Origin: a bacterium
GTDB taxonomy: Bacteria; Patescibacteriota; Minisyncoccia; Phycocordibacterales; DATDWN01
Direction: 5' to 3'
Length of the DNA stretch: 64,000 nt
Assembly (NCBI GenBank): GCA_037134875.1
Contig: JBAXLH010000001.1
Span: 5,322 to 69,321 of the forward strand
Position 1 is the stretch's first letter. Every line of letters begins with the position of its first letter. The translations under genes and the position numbers were made by a program. Positions 506 through 62,958 of the stretch are shown here, piece after piece. The notes under the pieces were generated by a model. The model had not been told where the DNA came from. It made no database searches and saw nothing but the letters and a program-made list of their open reading frames with translations.

Positions 506-1417
506 TTACTCTTTAATATTATTAAACATTTTTAATTTTTTCTCGACGACATCTTGGACTGCTTTGACAGAAGGCTTCAAAAACTTGTACGGTGCTACCT
601 CCTCTGGATTTTCTGACAGGCCTTTCATAAGTCCCTGTTTGTATGCTACACGAATTTCGGTGTTGATATGCACAATTGCAATACCGTTTGCGATTGACTG
701 TTTGAAATCATCCTCTGAGTTACCTGATCCACCATGGAGAACAAGCGGGACTTTTGTGGCCTCGGCAATTGCCTTGACCCTCTCGATGTTGAGCTTTGGA
801 TCTACGCCTCCTCGGAGCATCCCGTGGAAATTTCCAACAGCTGGAGCGAGCATATCTACACCAGTCAGGTCTACAAACTCTTTTGCCTTGATTGGATCGG
901 TCAGAGATTTCTCATCGAGAAGCACACCTTCGGGAATTGCATCCAAGACTTTTGACGATTGACCAATAAAACCGAGCTCACCCTCTACCAAAACCTCTCT
1001 GCCACAACCCCTCGCATACTCCACACACTGTTTTGCAACTTTTATATTTTCTTCCAAAGAAATATTTGCTCCATCAAAAATAACTGAATCAAATCCAGCA
1101 TCGATGACTTCTTTTACGCGATTAAAAGAGTATGTGTGGTCTGCGTTGAGAAAAATTGGATAGTTGTACTGCTCACGAGTAGCTTTGACCACTGCGGCAA
1201 CCTGTGGAATGCCGACAAAATCTCTCTCGCCCTCTGACACTCCAATAATAATCGGAACATTGAGAGATTGTGCTGCTCGGAAGACTCCCCAAAATGCTTC
1301 CATATTTGAAATATTAAAATGACCTATCGCTACTTTTTTTTCTAACGCCTCATGCACACATTCTTTTAATGTTTTCATGTCAGTAATTATACCATACAGA
1401 TTTCCCAGACAAAACAC
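506..1417 (-). CDS. fba: Class II fructose-bisphosphate aldolase
   Basis: 303 aa. The N-terminal region is ...AIGHFNISNMEAFWGVFRAAQSLNVPIIIGVSEGE... and the C-terminal motifs are LHGGSGNSEDDF, typical of FbaA/KbaY class II aldolases. Confidence 0.85.
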   Translation of the reverse strand: MFCLGNLYGIITDMKTLKECVHEALEKKVAIGHFNISNMEAFWGVFRAAQSLNVPIIIGVSEGERDFVGIPQVAAVVKATREQYNYPIFLNADHTYSFNRVKEVIDAGFDSVIFDGANISLEENIKVAKQCVEYARGCGREVLVEGELGFIGQSSKVLDAIPEGVLLDEKSLTDPIKAKEFVDLTGVDMLAPAVGNFHGMLRGGVDPKLNIERVKAIAEATKVPLVLHGGSGNSEDDFKQSIANGIAIVHINTEIRVAYKQGLMKGLSENPEEVAPYKFLKPSVKAVQDVVEKKLKMFNNIKE

Positions 1418-1535: not shown

Positions 1536-2519
1536 ATGAAAACAGATATTCTCGCCATTGGCGATGTTGTTATAGATGCTTTTATTAGACTCAAAGAAGC
1601 AGAGGTTCGGTGTGACGAACACAAGCAAAATTGCAAGCTGTGTTTGAGTTTTGCTGACAAAGTTCCCTACGAATCCGTTGAAATTTGCAAAGCTGTGGGA
1701 AATTCTGCAAATGCATCTGTATCAGCTGCACGTCTCGGTCTCAATTCTGCACTACTCTCATACGTTGGAAACGACCGAAATGGTGATGAATGTGTTGAAG
1801 AACTCCAAAAAAACAATGTGCACACAGAATATGTCAGAAAAGAGGATGGAAAAGTGACCAACTATCACTATGTGCTCTGGTATGATGTTGATCGCACGAT
1901 TTTGGTCAAGCACGAAACATACAACTACTCTCTCGGCAACATAGAAGCTCCAAAATGGATCTATTTGAGCTCTATGGGAGAAAATTCTCTGGAATTCCAT
2001 ATGGAAATTGCTGACTTTTTGGACAAAAACCCTGACACAAAACTCGTGTTCCAACCTGGAACATTTCAAATGAAATTTGGCAAAGACGCACTCGCACGAA
2101 TCTACAAAAAAACTGATATTTTTTTCTGCAACGTTGAGGAGTCACAGAGAATTTTGGGACGCAGTGACACACGAGATCTCCCAACACTTATGAAAGAAAT
2201 GATGGCTCTTGGCCCAAAAATAGTTTGTATTACAGACGGTATCGATGGTGCATATGCATACGACGGCACACATATGTGGTTTATGTCTGTGTATCCGCAC
2301 GTACCATTCGAGAGAACGGGCGCAGGTGACGCTTTTGCATCCACTGTTACCTCGGCACTTCTTCTTGGCAAAACACTGGAGGAAGCAATGATGTGGGGCC
2401 CGATCAACTCGATGTCAGTTGTCCAAAAAGTCGGCGCACAAAAAGGCCTCCTCACTCGCGAACGACTCGAGGAATATCTTCGCAATGCTCCAACAGACTA
2501 CAAACCAAGATTATTGTAA
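1536..2519 (+). CDS. PfkB-family carbohydrate kinase (ribokinase-like)
   Basis: The start is taken at MKTDILAIGDVVID, because the upstream part of ORF 1377.. is translated repeat sequence. The C-terminal motif is GAGDAF. Confidence 0.8.
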   Translation: MKTDILAIGDVVIDAFIRLKEAEVRCDEHKQNCKLCLSFADKVPYESVEICKAVGNSANASVSAARLGLNSALLSYVGNDRNGDECVEELQKNNVHTEYVRKEDGKVTNYHYVLWYDVDRTILVKHETYNYSLGNIEAPKWIYLSSMGENSLEFHMEIADFLDKNPDTKLVFQPGTFQMKFGKDALARIYKKTDIFFCNVEESQRILGRSDTRDLPTLMKEMMALGPKIVCITDGIDGAYAYDGTHMWFMSVYPHVPFERTGAGDAFASTVTSALLLGKTLEEAMMWGPINSMSVVQKVGAQKGLLTRERLEEYLRNAPTDYKPRLL

Positions 2520-2522
2520 TTA

Positions 2523-2657
2523 TCTGAATCAAAACTCGTCGAAAACGTATTCTTTTTTGAGGCTTCGCAAGCGCGACGGCGCGAGACTTGAGAAATTTGC
2601 CAGCAGGCAAATATTCGTACTCAAAAAAGAATATGTTGAGTAAGAGTTTTGATTCAG
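2523..2657. repeat. Palindromic element, family R1 (core gaggcttcgcaRgcg...gagacttgagaaatttgccagcaggcaaatattcgtactc)
   Basis: The ~70-nt core is shared with 19741-19870 and 28829-28958. The copy-specific inverted arms are tctgaatcaaaactcgtcgaaaacgtattctttttt / aaaaaagaatatgttgagtaagagttttgattcaga. It lies between convergent genes. Confidence 0.65.
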
Positions 2658-2667
2658 ATTTTGATAT

Positions 2668-3660
2668 TTATTTTTTTCGAGATATTGCTTTTTTGCAAGC
2701 CGAGAGAATGTGTGATTCGCCCATTTCGTAGTATTCCAAAAGTTCTTCGGGTGTACCAGACTGACCAAACTGATCTTTGACTCCGATAAATTCAATCGGT
2801 GTCGGTGACTGTGCGGACAAGAATTCAGCTATCGCACTTCCGAGACCTCCGGCGATTTGATGTTCCTCTACTGTTACAATCGCTCCAACGTTTTTTGCAA
2901 TTTTGAGCAAAGCTTCGGCATCAAGCGGTTTGACTGTTGCAAAATTCCAGACCTGTACTTTGACACCTTCTTTGCTGAGTTTTTCTGCAACTAACAGAGA
3001 TTTGTGCACGAGCGCACCGATTGCAACTATTGCAACATCGGCTTTTTGTTCTCCATAAAACATTTGTGCTTTGCCAAATTCAAATGGAGTATCTTTTGTT
3101 GTAATGATTGGCGTTTTTTCGCGTGCAAGTCTAATGTATACTGGCTTGCCAAGCTCTGCCGCGACGAGCGTGACTCTGTGTGCCTCGAGCGAGTCACATG
3201 GACAAATAACATTCATTCGGGGGAGAATTCGTGTGATAGCAATATCTTCAATCGCCTGATGTGTTCCTCCATCTGGTCCTACCGACACGCCGGCGTGAGA
3301 GCCAACAACTACTGCCGAACATTCGTTGTAACAAATCGTAGTGCGAATCTGCTCCCAATTTCGTCCGGGAGAAAACATTGCATAACTTGTAAAGAAAGGA
3401 ATTTTTCCCATCGCTGCCATACCACTCGCCACACTCGCCAGATTTTGTTCGGCAATACCGATCTGGACAAATCGCTCTGGAAATTTATTTTTAAATAAAT
3501 TCATCTGCGTGGATACAGTGAGGTCAGCACAGAGTCCAACAACCTTTGGATTTTTCTCGCCAGCCTCGAGAAGCCCGCGACCAAAACCCATTCGAATTGG
3601 TTCCTGCTCAATATCTTTGTCCCACAACTTTGGATTTAATTTTTGATTTTGATTTATCAT
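2668..3660 (-). CDS. Transketolase, C-terminal (pyrimidine-binding) subunit
   Basis: 330 aa, with the split-transketolase architecture typical of small genomes. The sequence is collinear with the transketolase C-terminal half (…GPDGGTHQAIEDIA…). Confidence 0.9.
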   Translation of the reverse strand: MINQNQKLNPKLWDKDIEQEPIRMGFGRGLLEAGEKNPKVVGLCADLTVSTQMNLFKNKFPERFVQIGIAEQNLASVASGMAAMGKIPFFTSYAMFSPGRNWEQIRTTICYNECSAVVVGSHAGVSVGPDGGTHQAIEDIAITRILPRMNVICPCDSLEAHRVTLVAAELGKPVYIRLAREKTPIITTKDTPFEFGKAQMFYGEQKADVAIVAIGALVHKSLLVAEKLSKEGVKVQVWNFATVKPLDAEALLKIAKNVGAIVTVEEHQIAGGLGSAIAEFLSAQSPTPIEFIGVKDQFGQSGTPEELLEYYEMGESHILSACKKAISRKK

Positions 3661-3672
3661 ATAGAATATTTA

Positions 3673-3915
3673 TTAAAAACCATGACCTATTGTTAAACTC
3701 ATAAGCACCAAAAGAGTCGTTGGAATAAGCATAATAACACCTACTACAATAACCAATATTCCAATAATCCTAAGAAAGGATGTTTTGTTATCTTCCTCTT
3801 TTGTTGTAACCAAAATCCTAATACCCGTACCTAAAATTACAAGTGCAATTAGAAATATAGGGAAAAAAGTTCCAAAGAGCCCCCAATCCGCAAGACTAAA
3901 AATGTTCCAATTCAT
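3673..3915 (-). CDS. Small integral membrane protein, hypothetical
   Basis: 80 aa with two hydrophobic helices, lying between the two transketolase subunit genes. Confidence 0.35.
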   Translation of the reverse strand: MNWNIFSLADWGLFGTFFPIFLIALVILGTGIRILVTTKEEDNKTSFLRIIGILVIVVGVIMLIPTTLLVLMSLTIGHGF

Positions 3916-3924
3916 ATGTTTGTT

Positions 3925-4824
3925 TTATTCATGCTCACCTCGGATCTGTCCACCGAGCGTGCGAAGTTCGTGTAAAGCAATTTCGACCTGCTTGTCTTTT
4001 GGTGGTTCACCGGCGATTTCTGTGCCGGGAATATTACCGTGCCATTTGAAATCTCGTTCCATATAGCTCACACCTTTGCCAGGAATTGTTCGGGCTATAA
4101 CAACAGATGGCCCATCAAATACCGCTTGTGCTCTGCCAATAGCTGCAATAATTTCGGCAAAATTGTGTCCATCGATTTCCTCCGTATGCCAGCCAAAACT
4201 CTCAAATTTATGAGTGAGAGATTCAAGGGGCATTACATCTTCTGTATATCCGTCAATTTGAATATTATTTCTGTCTATAATCGCAATCAGATTGCCGAGG
4301 CGTTCCTTTCCGGCGAGCATTATTGCTTCCCAGTTTTGACCTTCATCGAGTTCCCCGTCCCCCATTATGCAATAAAAGAATTTGTCGGATGATTTGCCAT
4401 GATCTATTCTATCGGCAATCGCCATTCCGACCGCCTGTGAAAGCCCAGAGCCAAGTGGTCCGGAGCTGGTCTCCACTGCACGCAAAAATTCTCGGTGCGG
4501 GTGTCCTTGGAGACGAGATTTAAACTTTCGAAGTGTCAAAAGTTCTTCTATTGGAAAATATCCGACGTGAGCGAGCGACGCGTACAGCACCGGTGCAATA
4601 TGTCCGTTTGAAACAATAAGCCGATCTCTCTCTGGCCAATCGGGATTGTGCGGATCGTGTTTCAAAATATAAAAATATAGCGCAGTAAATATATCCGCCA
4701 TACCGAGAGGCCCCGCAGAGTGTCCCGATCCAGCCGAGACAAGCATTTCAATAATAGAAATACGAATCTCTTTTGCTTTTTCTTCCAAAAACTTTAACTT
4801 ATCATCTGTTATATTGTTTTGCAT
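3925..4824 (-). CDS. Transketolase, N-terminal (TPP-binding) subunit
   Basis: 299 aa. The motif GHSAGPLGMADIFTALY…GDGELDEGQNWEA is the thiamine-diphosphate-binding fold of the transketolase N-terminal half. Confidence 0.9.
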   Translation of the reverse strand: MQNNITDDKLKFLEEKAKEIRISIIEMLVSAGSGHSAGPLGMADIFTALYFYILKHDPHNPDWPERDRLIVSNGHIAPVLYASLAHVGYFPIEELLTLRKFKSRLQGHPHREFLRAVETSSGPLGSGLSQAVGMAIADRIDHGKSSDKFFYCIMGDGELDEGQNWEAIMLAGKERLGNLIAIIDRNNIQIDGYTEDVMPLESLTHKFESFGWHTEEIDGHNFAEIIAAIGRAQAVFDGPSVVIARTIPGKGVSYMERDFKWHGNIPGTEIAGEPPKDKQVEIALHELRTLGGQIRGEHE

Positions 4825-4839
4825 ATAATTATATTTGAA

Positions 4840-5517
4840 TTATAAAGTGTACGATGAAAATTCTTCGAAAACTTCCTCTGGATTGTCTGCATCTAAAATA
4901 GCCGAGCCAGTAATGAGTTTTTTTGCACCTGCTTTGACAAGAGATTTTGCTGTCTCTTCGGTAACACCAATATCAATACCAATTATACAGTTCGGGTAGT
5001 GTCCATGCAATTGACTTATACGATTCAAAACTTTTAGATCGAGAGCGGCACCGTGTTTGCCGAGCGAATCATTTCCCATACATTGAATAAAATCAACTTG
5101 TGATACAAATTTGTCGAGTTTCGATAAGTCGGTCGATGGTTTGATAGCAATTCCAACGGTCACCAAATTTTCTTTGCAAATATCAATTACTTTTTGAAAA
5201 TTATCTGTTGCCTCGATATGCGCAACGATTGCTGATACACCGGTATAAATCCAATCTCGTACAACATCCTCTGGATTTTTGACCATAAGATGAATTTCAA
5301 AATCAACATCTTCCCACCTCGGCCAGCCTATTGCTTCTGTTTTCAACTTTTCAAAAAAATCAATGTCACGACCATTGTATGGCCATGTTTTGACGGGCGT
5401 AAACATACCATCGGAAATATCTATTTGGATGAGGTGTGCAAAAGACGCGACTCTGGAAATTTCTTCCTCTGTTTGTTCTCGCGTTTTTGGAATAATTGCT
5501 GGTACGACTATGGTCAT
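4840..5517 (-). CDS. rpe: Ribulose-phosphate 3-epimerase-like TIM-barrel protein
   Basis: 225 aa. The sequence …IDISDGMFTP…IHLMVKNPE…VAHIEAT… follows the Rpe pattern. The protein is divergent near the phosphate-binding loop. Confidence 0.65.
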   Translation of the reverse strand: MTIVVPAIIPKTREQTEEEISRVASFAHLIQIDISDGMFTPVKTWPYNGRDIDFFEKLKTEAIGWPRWEDVDFEIHLMVKNPEDVVRDWIYTGVSAIVAHIEATDNFQKVIDICKENLVTVGIAIKPSTDLSKLDKFVSQVDFIQCMGNDSLGKHGAALDLKVLNRISQLHGHYPNCIIGIDIGVTEETAKSLVKAGAKKLITGSAILDADNPEEVFEEFSSYTL

Positions 5518-5579
5518 ATGTTTTGAAAATTTTATTGTTTCCCAAATTTCGTTGAGCTGGATTGTTTTTGGAGAAACTA

Positions 5580-6026
5580 TTAAATTTTAATTTCATCAAT
5601 CTTTCTAATTCGTCGTTCGTGTCTCTCTTCGCCGGAAAATTTGGTGTGAAGCCAAAGTTCTACTGCCTGTTTTGCTTCTTGAGAAGTCAAAAAATGTGCT
5701 CCGAGAGAAAGCATATTTGCATTATTATGTTCACGAGAGAGAGTTACAATGTGTTTTGGTCCACCATAGAACACAGCACAGCGTACATTAGGAAATCTGT
5801 TGGCAACTATTGCCTCGCCTTGACCTGACCAGCCGATCACGATACCTTTTTTTTGTGGATTTTCGAAAATTTTGCGAGCAACGAGAGATACATAGTCTGG
5901 ATAGTCATCATCATGATTGTATTTCGATGGACCACAATCAAAAACCTCTAAACCTTTTTCCTCGAGAAAAGATATGAGTTCCCTTTTGAGCTCAAACCCA
6001 GCATGATCTGATCCAATATATATCAT
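5580..6026 (-). CDS. rpiB: Ribose-5-phosphate isomerase B
   Basis: 148 aa. The N-terminal MIYIGSDHAGFELK is the RpiB/LacAB family N-terminus. Confidence 0.9.
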   Translation of the reverse strand: MIYIGSDHAGFELKRELISFLEEKGLEVFDCGPSKYNHDDDYPDYVSLVARKIFENPQKKGIVIGWSGQGEAIVANRFPNVRCAVFYGGPKHIVTLSREHNNANMLSLGAHFLTSQEAKQAVELWLHTKFSGEERHERRIRKIDEIKI

Positions 6027-7631: not shown

Positions 7632-7793
7632 AATTAAATCAGACTTCCTTGTACTTTTCGAAAAGCAATCTGTCTAGTCCTGGTGGACTAGCGAACTTCT
7701 CGTCGCTCAAGAAAACAATGTCGGATTACCTCGTTGTTTTCTAAGCTCCTGCGAAAGGCTTTTCTCAAAATACAAGGAAATCTGATTTAAAAA
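7632..7793. repeat. Palindromic element, family R4 (core aatctRtctagYcctgStggRctagcgaacttctcgtcgctcaagaaaacaatgtcggWttacctcSttgttttctaagctcctgcgaaagg)
   Basis: The core is shared with 62791-62950. The inner hairpin tagtcc-tgg-tggacta here corresponds to tagccc-tgc-tgggcta there, a compensatory double change. The arms aaattaaatcagacttccttgta… / …tacaaggaaatctgatttaaaaatt are copy-specific. Confidence 0.65.
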
Positions 7794-10840: not shown

Positions 10841-10983
10841 GATTATTTATCTAATGTTTGAAACTTTCAGATTTGAGTAAGGTCGCGTATAAAATAAAAA
10901 TCAGACTGGAGACGTATATTGATACGTTGACAGCCTGATTTTTATTTTAGACGATGAGATTACTCAAATCTGGAAGTTTTTAA

Positions 10984-13550: not shown

Positions 13551-13602
13551 ATTGCAGTAGTCTACCAGAATTAAATAAAAAATCAACTAAGAAGCGACTG
13601 CA

Positions 13603-13754
13603 CCTCCTCCTGCCATACTCATTTTCAGAGCAACCTTACATTTCCCTGCGGAAATGTAAGGCCGTCCTCGGTCTGAACTTGTCAAGAAGAAATGCCTTGA
13701 CAAGTCCGGCTTCAGACCTGCGGGGTCTCTGAAAATGAGTATGTCAGGAGGAGG
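13603..13754. repeat. Palindromic element, family R2b (related to R2; core contains cttgtcaag…cttgacaagtc)
   Basis: The arms cctcctcctgccatactcattttcagag / ctctgaaaatgagtatgtcaggaggagg are 28 nt with 1 mismatch. It lies immediately adjacent to an R2 copy. Confidence 0.55.
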
Positions 13755-13792
13755 TACATCCAATACTCTGACTATTCAACGGTCGGTTAAAG

Positions 13793-13957
13793 ACCGAAGT
13801 TACTTGCAAATGTTTTTTGAGCCCCCGCAGGCCGTGAGCTGGTCTTGTCAACGACCCGAGCACAGCGAGGGCTCTTGACAAGTCACGGCCGAGGACAGCC
13901 AATCAGTTCGCAGGAACTGATTGGGAAGCTCAAAAAACATTTGCAAGTAACTTCGGT
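13793..13957. repeat. Palindromic element, family R2 (core gcatccgcaggccgtgaRcWtggtcttgtcaaYgacccgagcacagcgagRgctcttgacaagtcacggccgaggac)
   Basis: The core is shared with 15935-16102 and 62097-62270. The perfect 29-nt arms accgaagttacttgcaaatgttttttgagc / gctcaaaaaacatttgcaagtaacttcggt are copy-specific. Confidence 0.7.
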
Positions 13958-13980
13958 TTTTCAACTACCAATTTTTTCCG

Positions 13981-15934: not shown

Positions 15935-16102
15935 AATTATAAAACACCTTTTGAATTTTTCGGAGCATCCGCAGGCCGTGAACATGGTCTTGTCAACGAC
16001 CCGAGCACAGCGAGGGCTCTTGACAAGTCACGGCCGAGGACCGAATGAGCTTTTCGCCGGAAAAGCGAATGTATCCGAAAAATTCAAAAGGTGTTTTATA
16101 AT
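15935..16102. repeat. Palindromic element, family R2
   Basis: The conserved R2 core has the copy-specific arms aattataaaacaccttttgaatttttcgga / tccgaaaaattcaaaaggtgttttataatt. The right arm overlaps the stop codon of the 16103.. gene. Confidence 0.7.
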
Positions 16103-18835
16103 TTACTTGCGATATTTCTCCTGAATCTGCCTCTCAATCTCTTCCCTATCCCCTCCGTACGTGAGATACGATAATTGTTTGAGCGAATCAATAATAGCTG
16201 GATCGCCTTTTGGTGGAAATGGTTCTTTGATGTTGAATGCTTTTTGTGAGGTACCGTTCATAAGCATTTTTACATAGGCATTCAAGTTATCAATATTCAT
16301 AAGATCTTTTGCGGTAAACACCGGAGAAAATTGTTTTTCTAAATATTCTGCGTCCTCGGCACTCACTCGAAAAGAAACAATCGAGCCAACGTTACCAAAC
16401 ACTGCATCGCGGATATTTTCCTGAAGTTGGGCAATAAACTGATGTGCAACAGTCAGTGACAGTTTGTATTTTCGTGCTTCAGAGAGAATGGATGAGATTG
16501 AATCCGTCGTAATGTTTTGGAACTCGTCGATGTAGAGATAAAACGGCGCAAAATCTTTTCCGTAGGAGTCCACACGAGAGAGAGCCGCCATCAGAATTTT
16601 GCCGACAAGAATGAGACCGATGAGATTGGCATTTATATCTCCCAATTTACCTTTGGCCAAATTGACGAGAAGTATTTTTTTGTTATCCATTATGTCGCGA
16701 AAATTGAAAGATGATTTTTCCTGTGCCACGATAGGTCGCATAACTTCGTTTGCAAGAAATACGTCAAATTTATTCACAATATATGGAACAATATTTGCAA
16801 GCGATGACTCTCCGCCAGCTTTCTCAGCAATTTCTTTCCAAAACTCTACAATGACAGGATTTTTGCATCTGGAAACTTTCAAATCCCTAAATGTTTTGTT
16901 GGACAACACCCGAGACACATCCAAAAGTGTACAGCCGGTCTCTGGATCTTCAACAACAAGCATCGCAGCATTTCTAAAATATTGCTGGAAAGCCGGTCCC
17001 ATTGACTCTGGAACATTACCATACAGTTTTTGGAATATACTCAAAAGCTCGTTGACCACAAATGTTTTCTGCTCCGGAAACTTTGGATCATACTCAAGCA
17101 TATTGAGGGCCATTGGACGCTCGGTGTAGCTTGGATCAAAATAAATCACATCTTTGTAACGGTCTTTTGGAATATTTGCCAAAATATCAATAATATCTGT
17201 ACCGTGTGGGTCAATAAAACAACATCCATTACCTCTCTCGATATCCTGAATAATAAGATTTTTGAGAAGAACAGTTTTTCCAGCACCAGTTTGTCCAATG
17301 ACATATAAATGTCTGAGTCGGTCCTGATCCTGCATAAATATTTTTGTCTCAACGTTTCGATAGTTGTTGACACCAATAAATGTACCATCTTCTCCCATAC
17401 CGAGCGGTGCTGGCGCAGAAACAGCCTGATTTTGCTTGAGCTGTGGTGATGGTGAAAGATCTGTTGTGTTGAAATGTAGTAGTGATGTTATTTCGTGCAG
17501 ATTGAGAGGCAATAGCTCGTCTGGATTGTAACTCCTGAAAGAAAAATTTCTGAACATTTTTTGCAGAGCACCTTTTTCAAGACGTTTCCACTCGAGTGAG
17601 TTGGAGACAGGATCGGAAAATTGATTGAATGATGACTCGATACTTTTCAAAATCCGCTCGGAATCCGGCCGACTCTGTGTCGAGACAACGATACGCACAT
17701 TTGTTGCTACTATTTCGCTGGCGATTTTTTGTTTAATTTTTTGAATTGCATCATTGTCCACCGGCTTCTTTTCTTCACCCTCTTTTGGTAATGGTTTGAA
17801 AATTTCTTTGACTGTTTTTGCAAAATCTCCAACAAATGTTTCTGGCAGATTGACCGCGTCTTTTGTTGGCACACCTTTTTCTATTTGCTCAATTGCATAT
17901 TTGTATTTTTTGGTGAAATAGTCCCCTTTTGGAGAGAAAACAATTTGAATTGCAGCTCCTTCGCCATCTTTTGCAATCTTTGAAAAACTGTTGATAACAA
18001 CATTCATTGGATCGTAGTCAAATGACTCGTATGTTTTGAATGGATACACTGGCTTTTCTTTTGTGGTGAGATACGAACCGAGCGAAACACCTTCTCCATT
18101 GAAAATATTGTAGTCATTTGTCGCCTCGACAACTCGCGCTGTCGAGAAAATAGAGACAATGTGTTTCTCAAAAAGCTGTTTGAATTCATCGGGCACCGCA
18201 ACATAAAATACAAATTGGTTACTGCCATTTGCGTTTGCAATTTCGAGTGCAATATAATTTTCTTTTTCTTTTTTTGAAACAACCGAAAGCATTCCAGCAT
18301 AAAACTGCTCCATACTGGAAATCACTTCTTTGAGTCCTTTTTGTTGTTTTTCTTTTTCTTCTTCAAGAAGCACAACCTCATATAAAGTCATTCCAACACC
18401 GCGGAAATCTCTCTCGGAAAGGTTGAGATCATTTGGCTTGTATCCACTTTTTACAAATTGCACCAAAAAACGATGAAAATCATCATCGAGATGAGGGTCT
18501 TTCATTTCAGACAAAACAGAAAGTGCGTTTTTCACACCTTTTTCATTGAGTATTCCGAGGAGCTCCTCCATCTTTTTGTCGTGTCGCTCCGGAGCGAGAT
18601 TCAAAACAATTGACTCAGCATCAGCCTTTGAAAGTGCATACGTATCCGAGAGAACATCTTTTGATAATGTGTCTTTATATTTTGAAATTTGTTCGCGAAC
18701 AACGGTGTCGGTATCCACTTTTTGATCTCGTTCGTGAAGCTGTTTTTCTTTTTCGGCGATTTTACCACGCAAGAAATTTATTTCCTCTTCGGGTGATGTA
18801 AAGCGAGAAGTATTTTCGCTCAAAACTTTTTCCAT
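16103..18835 (-). CDS. VirD4/TraG-like (type IV coupling-protein / DUF87-type) P-loop ATPase
   Basis: 910 aa. The Walker A motif is GQTGAGKTV. The C-terminal …YLYIDEFQNITT…LSLTVAHQFIAQL… resembles the TraD/TraG C-terminal region. The family assignment is tentative. Confidence 0.55.
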   Translation of the reverse strand: MEKVLSENTSRFTSPEEEINFLRGKIAEKEKQLHERDQKVDTDTVVREQISKYKDTLSKDVLSDTYALSKADAESIVLNLAPERHDKKMEELLGILNEKGVKNALSVLSEMKDPHLDDDFHRFLVQFVKSGYKPNDLNLSERDFRGVGMTLYEVVLLEEEKEKQQKGLKEVISSMEQFYAGMLSVVSKKEKENYIALEIANANGSNQFVFYVAVPDEFKQLFEKHIVSIFSTARVVEATNDYNIFNGEGVSLGSYLTTKEKPVYPFKTYESFDYDPMNVVINSFSKIAKDGEGAAIQIVFSPKGDYFTKKYKYAIEQIEKGVPTKDAVNLPETFVGDFAKTVKEIFKPLPKEGEEKKPVDNDAIQKIKQKIASEIVATNVRIVVSTQSRPDSERILKSIESSFNQFSDPVSNSLEWKRLEKGALQKMFRNFSFRSYNPDELLPLNLHEITSLLHFNTTDLSPSPQLKQNQAVSAPAPLGMGEDGTFIGVNNYRNVETKIFMQDQDRLRHLYVIGQTGAGKTVLLKNLIIQDIERGNGCCFIDPHGTDIIDILANIPKDRYKDVIYFDPSYTERPMALNMLEYDPKFPEQKTFVVNELLSIFQKLYGNVPESMGPAFQQYFRNAAMLVVEDPETGCTLLDVSRVLSNKTFRDLKVSRCKNPVIVEFWKEIAEKAGGESSLANIVPYIVNKFDVFLANEVMRPIVAQEKSSFNFRDIMDNKKILLVNLAKGKLGDINANLIGLILVGKILMAALSRVDSYGKDFAPFYLYIDEFQNITTDSISSILSEARKYKLSLTVAHQFIAQLQENIRDAVFGNVGSIVSFRVSAEDAEYLEKQFSPVFTAKDLMNIDNLNAYVKMLMNGTSQKAFNIKEPFPPKGDPAIIDSLKQLSYLTYGGDREEIERQIQEKYRK

Positions 18836-18913: not shown

Positions 18914-19726
18914 TCACTTCCTCAAATAATACAACCTCATCTCTTCTGGAAATCGCTCAATGGAATATCGTAGAGCGGTGCGTGGAATATGGGAGTAGTG
19001 TTTGTCCAAAAATTTTCGCAATGTCCCCTCGTCTTTTTTGCCGACTTCACGGAGCATCCAACCAACAGCTTTGTGGATCAGATCATGTGTGTCAGAAAGT
19101 AACATCTCTGCGATCTTGAGTGTGTCACCAAAATCGCCCTGACGTATGAAAGTGAGCGTTGAAATAATAGAGATTCTCTTTTTCCACAAATCTTTCGACT
19201 CAGCAAATGTGTACAAAATATCTCGAGGTTTATCCAGCAGATATGTTCCGACAATCTGCGGAGCTGACAAATCCACCAAATCCCAATTGTTTATGTATTT
19301 TGTGTTTTTAATGTACAGGTCAAAAATTTGTTTTTGAACTCTTAACATACCAGATTTCTGTCTCAACATATGCTGGTCTGAAAACAGAATATTCGCCTGC
19401 TGGCGAATTTCTTCGTGCTCGGCCCGTCGGCCTGTGCAATGTTTCAGACCAGCATATGTCTTCGACGAAATCTGATACTTTTGAATCAAAATCAACAGGG
19501 CAACCATTCGACATTCATGAATTTCTGATTTGAGTAGCTTTACAACATCCGCAAATGGTAAATCGACAAATTGTTTGGCGACGTTGCGCTGATCTGGCAT
19601 TACAATTCCCAAAAAAACATCTCCTTCGCCATACTCCCCTTTGCCAGTCTTAAAAAACCGAGAAAGTATTTTGGCTTTCCCTTTACTCGACTTCTTTTTC
19701 AATTTTGAAATTAGGTTATTGTACAT
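18914..19726 (-). CDS. DNA alkylation repair protein (AlkD/AlkC-like HEAT-repeat glycosylase) carrying an in-frame repeat-element insertion
   Basis: The N-terminus is FFKTGKGEYGEGDVFLGI and the C-terminus is WMLREVGKK…RTALRYSIERF. The reading frame continues through the R3 element at 19366-19459. Confidence 0.7.
   Translation of the reverse strand: MYNNLISKLKKKSSKGKAKILSRFFKTGKGEYGEGDVFLGIVMPDQRNVAKQFVDLPFADVVKLLKSEIHECRMVALLILIQKYQISSKTYAGLKHCTGRRAEHEEIRQQANILFSDQHMLRQKSGMLRVQKQIFDLYIKNTKYINNWDLVDLSAPQIVGTYLLDKPRDILYTFAESKDLWKKRISIISTLTFIRQGDFGDTLKIAEMLLSDTHDLIHKAVGWMLREVGKKDEGTLRKFLDKHYSHIPRTALRYSIERFPEEMRLYYLRK
19366..19459. repeat. Palindromic element, family R3, inserted in frame within the alkD-like CDS
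   Basis: The arms are acatatgctggtctgaaaac / gtttcagaccagcatatgt and the core is …ttcttcgtgctcggcccgtcggcctgtgcaatg. It is translated as …HCTGRRAEHEEIRQQANILFSDQHMLRQKSGM…. Confidence 0.65.
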
Positions 19727-19740
19727 GGTGGTAGTATTTC

Positions 19741-19870
19741 TCTTTAATTTCGTTGACTCAAAATTTTTTTTGAGGCTTCGCAGGCGGGTAGCCGAGACTT
19801 GAGAAATTTGCCAGCAGGCAAATATTCGTACTCAAAAAAAGTTTTGAGGAAAAAGAAATTAAAGAGAAAT
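19741..19870. repeat. Palindromic element, family R1
   Basis: The R1 core has the copy-specific arms tctttaatttcgttgactcaaaattttttttgag / ctcaaaaaaagttttgaggaaaaagaaattaaaga. Confidence 0.65.
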
Positions 19871-19897
19871 TTGCAACTGAAAAATCTTTTATACTTT

Positions 19898-20248
19898 CTA
19901 CAAAAAATGATGCCAGAAAACAAGAATGCCCAACACAAAGGCGCCGAGAGAACTTACAAAGACTAAACCAGCCATTGTGTCTTTTATTTTCCCTATAGCA
20001 CTATCATAGGCAGGCTCAACTTTGTTGCACAAATCCTCCACAACAGTATTGACAATCTCTGCGGACAAAACAAGCACAATAGCGACAATACACAAGGCCG
20101 ACTCGCCAAAAGAAAATCGAAACATAATCATTAACACAAGAACAACAAGAGTAACAGCTAGTTCTATGCGAAAATTTAACTCCTCTTGCCACGTTGTCCG
20201 TATACCTCGAAAGGCATTTTTGAACGAATTAATTGTTTTTGAAATCAT
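19898..20248 (-). CDS. dgkA: Diacylglycerol kinase
   Basis: 116 aa with three TM helices. The pattern …NAFRGIRTTWQEELNFRIEL…SAEIVNTVVEDLCN… is DgkA-like. Confidence 0.85.
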   Translation of the reverse strand: MISKTINSFKNAFRGIRTTWQEELNFRIELAVTLVVLVLMIMFRFSFGESALCIVAIVLVLSAEIVNTVVEDLCNKVEPAYDSAIGKIKDTMAGLVFVSSLGAFVLGILVFWHHFL

Positions 20249-36303: not shown

Positions 36304-36505
36304 AGGTTTTTAAAAGTTTGCGAGTTTTGTAAATTAAAACTACGGCGAGATCATTTTCTTTTCTGAATTATAGTTTTACGACCCTTGTCTCGGCACAGTA
36401 ATTTTGGAGCACGCGATAAGTCCTGCTGGACTTTCGCTCAATCTCGCGCCGTCGCGCTCCGAAGTCTCCAAAATCACTGCGCCTTCGACGTGGTCGTAAA
36501 TCTTT

Positions 36506-39335: not shown

Positions 39336-39394
39336 ATTACCACAAAAAGTAAAAATTGCAAATTTATTATTTAGTATTATGGAGTATGGATTCT

Positions 39395-39520
39395 CATTAA
39401 ATAAATTTTTCGCATTCGCAGGTTTTTGATTCAGATGACAACAATTTTTTCTAGTCGTGAGCGTTTAGTCCTGTGTAACAAGGACCGACCGTAGGGAGTC
39501 CGCGGAAGACAGAAAAAATT
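39395..39520. repeat. Palindromic element (singleton in this window, family R5)
   Basis: The imperfect arms ggtttttgattcagatgacaacaattttttct / agaaaaaattgtgcttcatctgacaaaaacc surround the core gtcctgtgtaacaaggac…ggagtccgcgg. Confidence 0.4.
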
Positions 39521-39576
39521 GTGCTTCATCTGACAAAAACCGAGGACGTGAAAAATTTACTCAATGAGAATTATAT

Positions 39577-44757: not shown

Positions 44758-44819
44758 ATAGACAGTATAAACGATTTTTGTTATCTTATAAATGTGTTTG
44801 AGTAAAAACACAAACATTC

Positions 44820-44842
44820 CGCGGTAGCTCAGTGGTAGAGTG
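44820..44842 (+). pseudogene. Truncated duplicate of the tRNA-Asn 5' end (23 nt identical: tccgcggtagctcagtggtagag)
   Basis: It is identical to 45013-45035. The downstream sequence lacks a T-arm or 3' half. Confidence 0.55.
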
Positions 44843-45012
44843 AGATTGGGGTGGGACCCAATCGCAAGACCGGAGCGCGACGGCGCGAGGTGGGGTCGCA
44901 GGATTTTTCAACAGAAAAATACCTGTGACGAGCCTGTGTGGTATATAACATTTTTGAACCCCTCTTGATTACTATTTTGAGAATAATAATCAAGACAAGT
45001 TTTGAAATATAT

Positions 45013-45366
45013 TCCGCGGTAGCTCAGTGGTAGAGCGATCGCCTGTAAAGTGCTTGCAGCTTCCTAAAGTAATTTAGGCTGAAAAATGAGGTGAATTCGG
45101 GGAAACCCCACGTGGGCAATCCCGAGCCAAGCCACTTTCAAGTTTTGATTTTTTATATTTAGAAATTAAAACTTGAAAGTGGAAGGTGTAGAGACTATCT
45201 CGAAAGAGAGTAGTTATTATTTTTCAAATAAAATAATCACGAAGCGCCCCACATCCCACTTGTTTATCAAAAATAGATAAAGGATGATGATATAGTCCAT
45301 ACCAAAGGCAACTTTGGAATCAATGTAAGCGATTGGTCGTAGGTTCGATCCCTACCCGCGGAGCCA
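45013..45366 (+). tRNA. tRNA-Asn (GUU) interrupted by a group I intron in the anticodon loop; CCA encoded
   Basis: The 5' exon TCCGCGGTAGCTCAGTGGTAGAGCGATCGCCTGT spans 45013-45046. The 3' exon TAAGCGATTGGTCGTAGGTTCGATCCCTACCCGCGGAG+CCA spans 45326-45366. The splice satisfies the group I rule (5' exon ends in U, intron ends in G). The alternative reading is Tyr(GUA) if the boundaries are shifted by 3 nt. Confidence 0.6.
45047..45325 (+). ncRNA. Group I self-splicing intron (no ORF)
   Basis: About 279 nt. It contains the conserved group I core element GATGATATAGTCC (consensus AAGAUAUAGUCC, P7/S region) near 45283-45298 and ends in G. Confidence 0.65.
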
Positions 45367-45744
45367 AAAAGTTTAAACCCCGAAAGGGGTTTTTACTTTT
45401 CTTGGCTCCGTGGAGCAGAACAGGGTTCTGCGTGTAGGGATCGAACAGTTTGTCGGTTTACAAGTTTAGCAAAACTTGTCGACAAACTGGTGGCCAGGAT
45501 TTTCTGTTTTGACGAAAACAGAAAATCTGAGGCCGATACCCCTACCCGCGGAGCCAAAAAGTTTAAACCCCGAAAGGGGTTTTTACTTTTCTTGGCTCCG
45601 TGGAGCAGAACAGGGTTCTGCGTGTAGGGATCGAACAGTTTGTCGGTTTACAAGTTTAGCAAAACTTGTCGACAAACTGGTGGCCAGGATTTTCTGTTTT
45701 GACGAAAACAGAAAATCTGAGGCCGATACCCCTACCCGCGGAGC
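45367..45744. repeat. Tandem direct repeat, 2 x 190 nt; each unit ends in a copy of the tRNA-Asn 3' end (cctacccgcggagcc) and begins with its inverted copy (ggctccgtggag)
   Basis: The two units are identical (45367-45556 and 45557-45744). Each has a terminator hairpin aaaccccgaaaggggttttt, an inverted degenerate T-arm-like segment (gtagggatcgaac) and two long hairpins. Confidence 0.8.
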
Positions 45745-62756: not shown

Positions 62757-62790
62757 ATGAATAGTATATCATAAGTTAATTTGTTAGATT

Positions 62791-62950
62791 CAAAAACCGA
62801 TAGGAGCATATCTTTCACGGAGCAATCTATCTAGCCCTGCTGGGCTAGCGAACTTCTCGTCGCTCAAGAAAACAATGTCGGTTTACCTCCTTGTTTTCTA
62901 AGCTCCTGCGAAAGGCTCCGGAAAAGATATGCTCCTATCGGTTTTTTAAA
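62791..62950. repeat. Palindromic element, family R4
   Basis: The R4 core has the arms caaaaaccgataggagcatatctttcacggagc / gctccggaaaagatatgctcctatcggtttttt. Confidence 0.65.
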
Positions 62951-62958
62951 ATCTACCA

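Follow-up and report, generated by a model that had tools for sequence, protein, structure and literature searches.

The palindromic elements of Rickettsia (RPEs) are the closest known analogue of the element reported here, a hairpin of ~125-190 nt in which two further hairpins, P2 and P3, form a three-way junction on top of a long stem, P1. RPEs are palindromic, multi-family repeats of ~100-150 bp, nearly half of which sit within the reading frame of unrelated genes, at structurally tolerated positions, and the rest between genes; copies at orthologous sites have been retained in different species, and their transposition mechanism is unknown (PMC10969869). In the window, by which we mean the whole 64-kb stretch of contig JBAXLH010000001.1 that was analysed, from a bacterium of the Patescibacteria or candidate phyla radiation (CPR), at least 16 architecturally related hairpin elements were found by inverted-repeat scan, folding and a covariance model, making up ~4% of the sequence, and in them complementary variable arms of 30-37 nt flank a core of 55-120 nt. 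[quoted passage not shown]

The CPR element resembles RPEs in being palindromic, in its size and in the occurrence of these at least 16 copies in several subfamilies within 64 kb, as well as in its in-frame, non-disrupting insertion, at structurally tolerated positions, in an AlkD-like gene of the window and in ~20 genes of other CPR genomes, the remaining copies being intergenic. Orthologous copies are likewise shared across species. However, RPE families are defined by sequence and yield one peptide each, whereas the CPR element is translated in two sense frames and one antisense frame and is conserved as a covarying base-paired fold with a three-way-junction apex. It also spans a superphylum while RPEs, by the review's description, are found in one genus, and it has a variant tied to tRNA 3' ends.

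Other described systems share fewer features with it. The Correia/NEMIS and ERIC MITEs form long transcript hairpins that can be processed by RNase III or RNase E (PMC10969869). Like MITEs, the CPR elements are small, non-autonomous, abundant and mostly intergenic, and give rise to spurious small open reading frames (ORFs), but MITEs have conserved terminal inverted repeats and flanking target-site duplications, whereas CPR copies with identical or 94%-identical cores differ in their arms, and MITEs are species- or genus-specific and without deep structural covariation. By inspection, no target-site duplications were present at R1a, R1b, R1c or the copy at 33088, and the GTAT...GTAT at the genic window copy is readable as a helix extension. 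Arms and flanks share no repeats. No autonomous transposase element with matching ends was found near the elements, whole genomes not having been searched, and neither the IS110-family gene at 30902-32443 nor the tRNA-targeting serine recombinases described below are consistently linked to them. REPs are 20-40 nt long, sequence-conserved within a genome, flanked by a conserved tetranucleotide and linked to RAYT transposases, and are not known in frame inside genes. The CPR elements share with REPs and BIMEs the character of abundant extragenic palindromes that are long maintained, with possible host roles in mRNA stability or termination, but are larger, and a RAYT-like gene was not seen. Structure, not sequence, is what is recognised in integron attC sites and in the folded attP site of CTX phage, which are strand-specific and consist of a helix, an unpaired spacer, a second helix and a variable terminal structure. 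The CPR element resembles them, as a likeness only, in being a strand-specific folded hairpin with an unpaired central spacer, one variant of which (type B, below) is laid out like an integration product. Its outer ends, however, are variable, with only a generic AAAAC...GTTTT complementarity in some copies and no R''/R' consensus, and no integrase, attI or cassette array was seen; orientations are mixed, some copies are genic and the apex is conserved.

The R1 copies lie on the + strand, as follows.

2522 to 2659, + strand: R1a, complete hairpin (75.6 bits), three-way-junction core at 2552-2631, weaker pairing out to 2507-2674
2570 to 2584, + strand: P2 GC mini-hairpin of R1a, GCGC-GACG-GCGC on a GCA/GA internal loop
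19736 to 19870, + strand: R1b, complete hairpin (65 bits), core at 19765-19842, antisense to both neighbour genes
28827 to 28957, + strand: R1c, complete hairpin (64.4 bits), core at 28855-28932, between divergent mraZ and a + strand gene

As the original prediction had claimed, a constant core is combined with different arms: a 33-nt stretch is 100% identical in the three copies (2590-2622, 19801-19833 and 28891-28923; 0 chance matches expected). R1a lies 3 nt past the pfkB stop codon, with convergent genes on either side, and the flanking genes differ at each copy (the pfkB kinase and a transketolase subunit at R1a, the AlkD-like gene and an unknown gene at R1b, mraZ and an unknown gene at R1c), which rules out one duplicated segment including the flanking genes as the source of the copies. 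The ~35-nt arms, which had been taken as different and perfectly complementary, do differ, but are only 76-78% complementary across their full length because a conserved internal bubble follows the 18-19 bp inner helix in each stem, and the arms of R1a and R1b retain ~50% identity (hand count) together with the same helix-bubble-helix layout. Between R1a and R1b or R1c, only P2 differs, so that local exchange is a possible source of the P2 of R1a. The 15-mer that forms it, AGCGCGACGGCGCGA, occurs exactly four times (2570-2584, 33127-33141 and 44874-44888 on the + strand and 36444-36458 on the - strand; chance expectation 0.04), each time at the homologous P2 position of a related element. The GC mini-hairpin thus does link different repeat families, and its presence in the R3 copy and by the tRNA-Asn fragment was correctly predicted, but with four exact copies in place of three sites and at coordinates 2-5 nt away. 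It is not a variable insert that serves targeting or marks insertion sites, but helix P2, always at a homologous position, and its identity across families reflects homology and constraint more than the swapping of modules that had been proposed. The three families that had been described are parts of a single superfamily, which is conserved across CPR and of which the window contains at least 16 members. The small ORFs 2419..2643 (+), 19744..19938 (-) and 28830..29015 (-) traverse R1 on different strands and frames and, as already suspected, are read-through and not genes; R1 as a protein-coding repeat was rejected, given that these three vary in strand and frame and that genic relatives use two frames.

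All copies follow a common layout on one consistent strand, which runs from P1 through a pyrimidine-rich strand, GCA, P2 (G...C), GA-G and P3 (AGCA-like loop) to the return strand of P1. In many copies, including all three of R1, P1 has a fixed geometry of two helices, an inner one of 18-19 bp and an outer one, separated by a purine-rich bubble with 5'-GYCGAA on one side and 5'-GAGNAA on the other. The GC hairpin P2 rests on an internal loop of GCA/GA and can expand from 12 to ~70 nt, and the hairpin P3 combines a loop of AGCA type with an internal loop of AA/UAU. Read by eye, the P2 sequence appears to fit the pattern GNNN-GRCG-NNNC, recurrent in many other CPR genomes, and the arms are a conserved chassis in which variation is confined to paired positions. 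In a 51-sequence alignment, RNAalifold independently predicted P1, P2 and P3; 92.7% of cells were paired, compared with 71.8% after shuffling, double (compensatory) changes were present in 20 of 21 pairs (shuffled mean 12.7), and the covariation score was 0.522 against 0.157 for shuffled alignments (0 of 500 shuffles as high) and 0.05-0.15 for slid partners. P3 is partly fixed by the pattern used in the search, whereas P2, the P3 extension and P1 are free of it and carry most of the covariation signal. Among the 82 instances with long stems, 237 G·U pairs (about 9% of pairs) stand against 18 A·C 1x1 mismatches (p = 7e-50); in 61 of the 82, the motif strand is more stable than its complement. 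This asymmetry and the stability bias show that one defined strand is the folded one, and compensatory changes maintain the fold in many CPR lineages. On the reading that we prefer, a single-stranded fold is under selection, most likely as RNA.

Known RNA families offered no match. At the gathering threshold, an Rfam scan of the window returned only a group I intron and a tRNA, both outside the elements; Rfam 15 holds no matching family, and scans of R1a and type B at E up to 10 gave miRNA-hairpin noise only. Checked by hand, the junction fits none of hammerhead, twister, pistol, hatchet, hairpin ribozyme, k-turn and 11-nt receptor. A pairing of the P2 loop (GACG) with CGUC of the P1 bubble was dropped, as no covariation was seen by inspection, and a terminator function was discarded, with no terminator-like sites found. 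The R1a bubble AGUA/GAA presumably resembles a sarcin-ricin motif.

The 19-nt P3 sequence was used as a pattern over species-representative genomes (596 Gb) and gave at least 116 matching stretches. Among the matches listed, 82 loci were assigned to Patescibacteria/CPR, including Saccharibacteria, Paceibacterota, Parcubacteria and Giovannoni-, Nomura- and Berkelbacteria, and all 82 match the covariance model, mostly over its full length (34-92 bits). To the 34 non-CPR loci among the matches listed the model aligns in the P3 19-mer region only, except for a weak full-length match of 24.5 bits (L046; loci from the search are given by L number), and these matches look like chance, for which ~17 hits in 596 Gb were estimated. 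A phage origin was rejected as well, the two viral-contig matches being judged chance. The covariance model, trained on 51 sequences, recovered all type-A copies of the window and one outside the training set (1419-1495, E = 1e-9), and gave 102 hits in 577 kb of CPR loci. Copy density is ~1 per 4 kb in the window, compared with ~1 per 29 kb elsewhere (non-anchor copies). Related copies are therefore abundant beyond the window, but the exact R1 core variant was not found outside it in the JGI metagenomes searched. Literature searches, the motif sequence included, found no paper describing the element, and the family is apparently undescribed and CPR-wide.

A large part of the evidence comes from copies inside protein-coding genes. 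In the window, the copy at 19347-19478 (-) is sense, in frame and stop-free within the AlkD-like DNA-alkylation-repair gene 18914..19726. The encoded protein has 270 aa compared with ~232-234 aa in typical homologues, and the ~40 extra aa correspond to the whole hairpin including both arms. AlphaFold2 predicted an intact fold (mean pLDDT 88, pTM 0.82), from which the insert, by lengthening two helices, projects as a helical hairpin whose tip is of low confidence. About one quarter of the copies examined in other CPR genomes are likewise in frame and stop-free inside housekeeping genes. Hosts confirmed by Pfam, with domains spanning or flanking the insert, are KsgA, MPG glycosylase, RsmE, IscU, TsaD, MiaA, RecG and a glycosyltransferase. 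In RecG the hairpin is located in the loop between helicase motifs II and III, and its removal presumably restores the usual motif spacing, judged by hand against the RecG of E. coli and B. subtilis. Whole hairpins are thus present as insertions relative to orthologous genes. Within long ORFs of CPR loci, type-A copies are sense in 17 cases and antisense in 3-4 (17 to 4 gives p = 0.007), the antisense hosts, identified by eye, being genes that resemble NifS and HolA and one for a membrane glycosyltransferase. Two sense frames are in use, in 10 and 7 copies, so that it is not the peptide that is conserved; the third frame, rich in Arg and Cys, is used by 0 of 17. Core frames are free of stops in 84% of cases, compared with 47% after shuffling. 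All seven tightly flanked intergenic copies lie between complete, separate genes, and no gene-splitting or frame-breaking copy was seen among the copies examined, including these seven. The in-frame, stop-free copies, the avoided frame and the lack of split genes argue that genic copies are translated, not spliced, and filtered by peptide tolerance. A peptide-profile search meant to count genic inserts returned, from its word index, only 11 short hypothetical ORFs.

In IscU (L043/L114), RsmE (L034/L081) and MPG (L027/L037), insertions at one site are common to different species. When the structure was taken from one orthologue and substitutions were scored in the other, the RsmE pair showed 15 compensatory changes (3-4 in shifted controls), the IscU pair 4 (0-1) and the MPG pair 8 (2-4), two further pairs being uninformative. 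Therefore, at least some copies are old, and their fold has been kept in place. The Saccharibacteria locus of the IscU pair (L043, 163-2110) has an IscU/NifU-like gene with an apparent intein-like insertion plus the hairpin, while the L114 orthologue has the hairpin only.

A second form of the element, type B, is a short-P1 variant with the same P2 and P3 that adjoins tRNA genes. In eight of ten cases the 3' end of a nearby tRNA (T-loop to CCA) is repeated after it as an exact copy of 18-22 nt, which forms its 3' arm. Its 5' arm is complementary to the T-loop and T-stem portion of this copy, so that the result is a T-arm-like hairpin with the junction at its apex. In 6 of 8 cases the arms of type B match sequence in the vicinity, and a description of the arms as inverted flank duplications does hold for type B. 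For type A it was rejected: RecG (analysed by hand) and AlkD orthologues are without either arm, and type-A arms match their flanks in 4 of 49 cases, compared with 2 of 49 for shuffled arms. The type-B element of the window (44843..44942) lies immediately 3' of a 28-nt tRNA-Asn 5' fragment (44816-44843), and one CPR locus (L038) holds a tandem array of type-B copies. At another (L026), the tRNA and the type-B copy are separated by a 2.9-kb island that carries a large serine recombinase. A serine recombinase was considered as the mobiliser and set aside: it is found beside the element at four loci, but ten close relatives are without any junction element, and the recombinase is therefore not its constant partner.

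The L026 island (3196-5980) is integrated at tRNA-Arg, and its recombinase gene and a 212-aa ORF are each bracketed by ~95-bp perfect inverted repeats, as seen by eye, which suggests invertible or nested cassettes. The serine recombinases of L122-L131, L044 and L080 are 64-88% identical to that of L026, and their ends lie within a few nt of the 3' ends of different tRNA genes (Lys, Arg, Leu three times, Ser and Asn), which implies that these recombinases target a common tRNA-gene feature such as the T-loop and not one tRNA. In the window, the intact tRNA-Asn(GUU) gene (45012-45366), for which there is no ARAGORN call, has its anticodon loop interrupted by a group I intron (Rfam RF00028, 45042-45318, 70 bits). 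Downstream, at 45350-45729, are two tandem 190-nt units that are 100% identical, an identity that could be an assembly artefact; each comprises two hairpins and two copies of the tRNA-Asn 3' end, one inverted and one direct (CCCTACCCGCGGAGCC), and a unit forms with the tRNA's own 3' end a 100-nt hairpin (45345-45444). These units share the arm logic of type B, but with a different apex. Two further loci (L003 and L044, Patescibacteria SO_2017_GW1_115) have the P3 module (TTCGCCAGCAGGCGAATAT) beside a T-loop-like GGGATTCGAAC and belong to neither type A nor type B; here the P3 module may lie within the variable arm of a tRNA-like gene.

Under the reading that R1 is a young subfamily of CPR-wide dispersed palindromes, the functional form would be RNA, co-transcribed with its surroundings, as the ~9% G·U pairs and the sarcin-ricin-like bubble suggest. 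The element would spread or persist as selfish or semi-domesticated DNA, mobilised by an enzyme acting in trans. Genic copies would survive only where translation yields a harmless helical hairpin at the protein surface, and within a genome recent copying or gene conversion would keep the cores the same, with paired substitutions driving the stems apart. Several points weigh against this reading. The loci examined yielded no mobilising enzyme, no target-site duplication, no consensus at the termini and no empty/filled polymorphism, and we infer mobility from distribution. The 100% identity of the R1 core beside arms that have diverged by ~50% can be explained only by assuming gene conversion or core replacement, and no copy of the exact R1 core variant was found beyond the window in the JGI metagenomes searched. 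Intergenic copies show no orientation bias relative to neighbour genes, which fits poorly with a simple cis-acting mRNA role, and many copies would thus need antisense or autonomous transcription if the RNA is active. Moreover, a fold that is conserved in place over the long term is not usual among purely selfish repeats, a hint of some function for the host or as RNA.

A tentative alternative is that the three-way-junction hairpin represents a new CPR-specific functional class, either an active RNA or a folded-single-strand recombination module. If the former were true, the RNA would have its own activity, catalytic, protein-recruiting or self-propagating, within essential-gene mRNAs and tRNA operons; if the latter, the module would target the apical loops of hairpins, tRNA T-arms included. 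In either version the element would be more than a passive RPE-like repeat.

That the elements are a host-functional structured RNA, a multi-copy cis-acting or stand-alone module with a cellular role and not mobile DNA, seems rather unlikely to us. Such a module could be a processing site for RNase III or another enzyme, an mRNA stabiliser, an intergenic insulator or a protein-binding platform, with type B as a free small RNA. The deep structural conservation with G·U-tolerant covariation on one strand and the orthologous copies maintained in place are in line with this explanation, as are the purine-rich internal loops, which are typical of RNA-protein sites, the intergenic gaps that are filled exactly from stop codon to next gene, and the type-B copies, which are of tRNA-like size and interleaved with tRNA genes in the same orientation. 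However, the random orientation of intergenic copies relative to flanking genes, the presence of copies within coding regions of unrelated essential genes, the amplification pattern seen in identical-core subfamilies of one genome and the widely varying copy density between genomes all speak against it, and no intrinsic-terminator signature was found.

We regard as quite improbable that the element is a folded single-stranded-DNA recombination site, like the integron attC or CTX-phage attP, integrated by single-strand exchange, with P1 providing two protein-binding helices around an unpaired bubble and the junction acting as the variable terminal structure. The strand-specific, structure-defined helix-bubble-helix with its fixed spacing would be compatible with such a site, and the type-B order of intact tRNA, spacer, inverted partial copy, apex and direct 3'-end copy is that expected after integration into a mimicked target. 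The tandem type-B arrays, the matching layout with a different apex at the tRNA-Asn locus of the window and the tRNA-targeting serine-recombinase islands in the same niche point in this direction too. Nevertheless, hand inspection of the ends found no attC R''/R' consensus (RYYYAAC...GTTRRRY), no cassette array, integrase or uniform orientation was seen, and the elements have core housekeeping genes beside them. In type A the arms are no duplicates of the flanks (4 of 49, against 2 of 49 for shuffled arms), the ten close recombinase relatives have no adjoining three-way-junction element, and copies in the window show no orientation bias relative to the replication strand; the 9% G·U(T) pairs and sarcin-ricin-like loops are also more RNA- than DNA-like.

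An intron-like element excised from transcripts by host nucleases and a ligase or by self-cleavage, with P1 joining the flanks and the host mRNAs restored, is very improbable. In its favour, genic copies strongly prefer sense (17 to 4), the conserved junction resembles small-ribozyme architectures, a group I intron is present in the window and the rRNA and tRNA genes of CPR bacteria are known to contain unusual insertions. Against it, all genic copies found are in frame and free of stops, the seven tightly flanked cases are all separate complete genes, avoidance of the Arg/Cys-rich frame points to selection on the translated peptide, no Rfam ribozyme or intron model matched, and the junction, on inspection, lacks what the hammerhead core requires (G8 and A14).

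CPR genomes are tiny and streamlined, yet ~4% of the window belongs to one structured hairpin family with relatives inside RecG, TsaD, IscU and further core genes in many lineages. The family provides a new and unusually well-conserved RNA or DNA fold for experiment, and its tRNA-3'-end variant may open a route to the insertion mechanism. It would also be a second independent case of "selfish DNA inside protein-coding genes", which in the review is chiefly a matter of Rickettsia (PMC10969869). For annotation, the elements create spurious small ORFs and false N-terminal extensions and explain 40-aa inserts in conserved proteins, and the covariance model could be used for masking or annotating them in CPR metagenome-assembled genomes.

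The relatives of R1 in the window are the following.

379 to 505, - strand: type-A relative D8a (70.7 bits), core at 402-482, directly downstream of the stop of gene 506..1417
1419 to 1495, - strand: type-A relative with a short P1, found by the covariance model only (34.3 bits, E 1e-9), outside the training set
7634 to 7790, - strand: enlarged-P2 relative D7a, with a GCA/GA base, an ACCA-loop P3 and 33-nt arms
13599 to 13758, - strand: long-P2 relative, P2 CCGCA-GG...CC-GAGGAC, GCAG-loop P3
13785 to 13966, + strand: long-P2 relative of family D4, from inverted-repeat scan and folding
15935 to 16103, + strand: long-P2 relative of family D4, 30-nt arms 100% complementary, ending at the stop codon of a TraG-like gene
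19347 to 19478, - strand: type-A relative D8b (83.1 bits), core at 19372-19452, within the AlkD-like gene 18914..19726
33088 to 33206, + strand: type-A relative, R3 of the original prediction (69.6 bits), 32-nt arms 100% complementary, P2 at 33127-33141 identical to that of R1a
36376 to 36499, - strand: type-A relative (59.3 bits), core at 36398-36476, P2 at 36444-36458 identical to that of R1a, a mini-hairpin copy that the original prediction had missed
39390 to 39571, + strand: more distant relative, arms long, base UUC-GCA-GG...CC-GA-GGAC, apex different, P3 lacking
44843 to 44942, + strand: type-B relative (33.9 bits), same P2 (44874-44888) and P3 module, no long P1
62095 to 62273, + strand: long-P2 relative of family D4, 94% identical to the 15957 copy, filling an intergenic gap exactly
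62785 to 62955, - strand: enlarged-P2 relative D7b, core 94% identical to that of D7a, arm sequences unrelated

The subfamilies differ chiefly in P2: R1 and the relatives nearest to it have one of 12 nt, the 7634/62785 pair has one of ~45 nt and the 13785/15935/62095 group one of ~70 nt. The elements at 13599-13758 (-) and 13785-13966 (+) adjoin in opposite orientation and have homologous long P2 domains, and a comparable head-to-head pair is present in another CPR locus (L061, 1132-1327). The first ~53 codons of the pfkB ORF call, which starts at 1377, traverse the element at 1419-1495; the Pfam domain begins at residue 107 and a plausible true start is at ~1536 (MKTDILAIGD...), an instance of mis-annotation caused by an element.

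The gene content of the window is cellular and of CPR type (MraZ, PBP, RNR, PriA, phosphoketolase, MreB and L25). At 10860-10980 it contains a near-perfect hairpin of 119 nt with a 4-nt loop (dG -64 kcal/mol, z = -12.9, + strand more stable), which is probably a separate palindromic element and has no three-way-junction core; the idea that it is the "empty" stem of an element was unsupported, as the bubble geometry differs. The gene at 30902-32443 (-) encodes an IS110/IS116/IS902-family transposase (Pfam PF02371) and has direct repeats alongside at 29866-30689 and 32552-32820. Several repeats of 40-250 nt, 73-86% identical, surround it, and the GC of this region, 0.485, is the maximum of the window.

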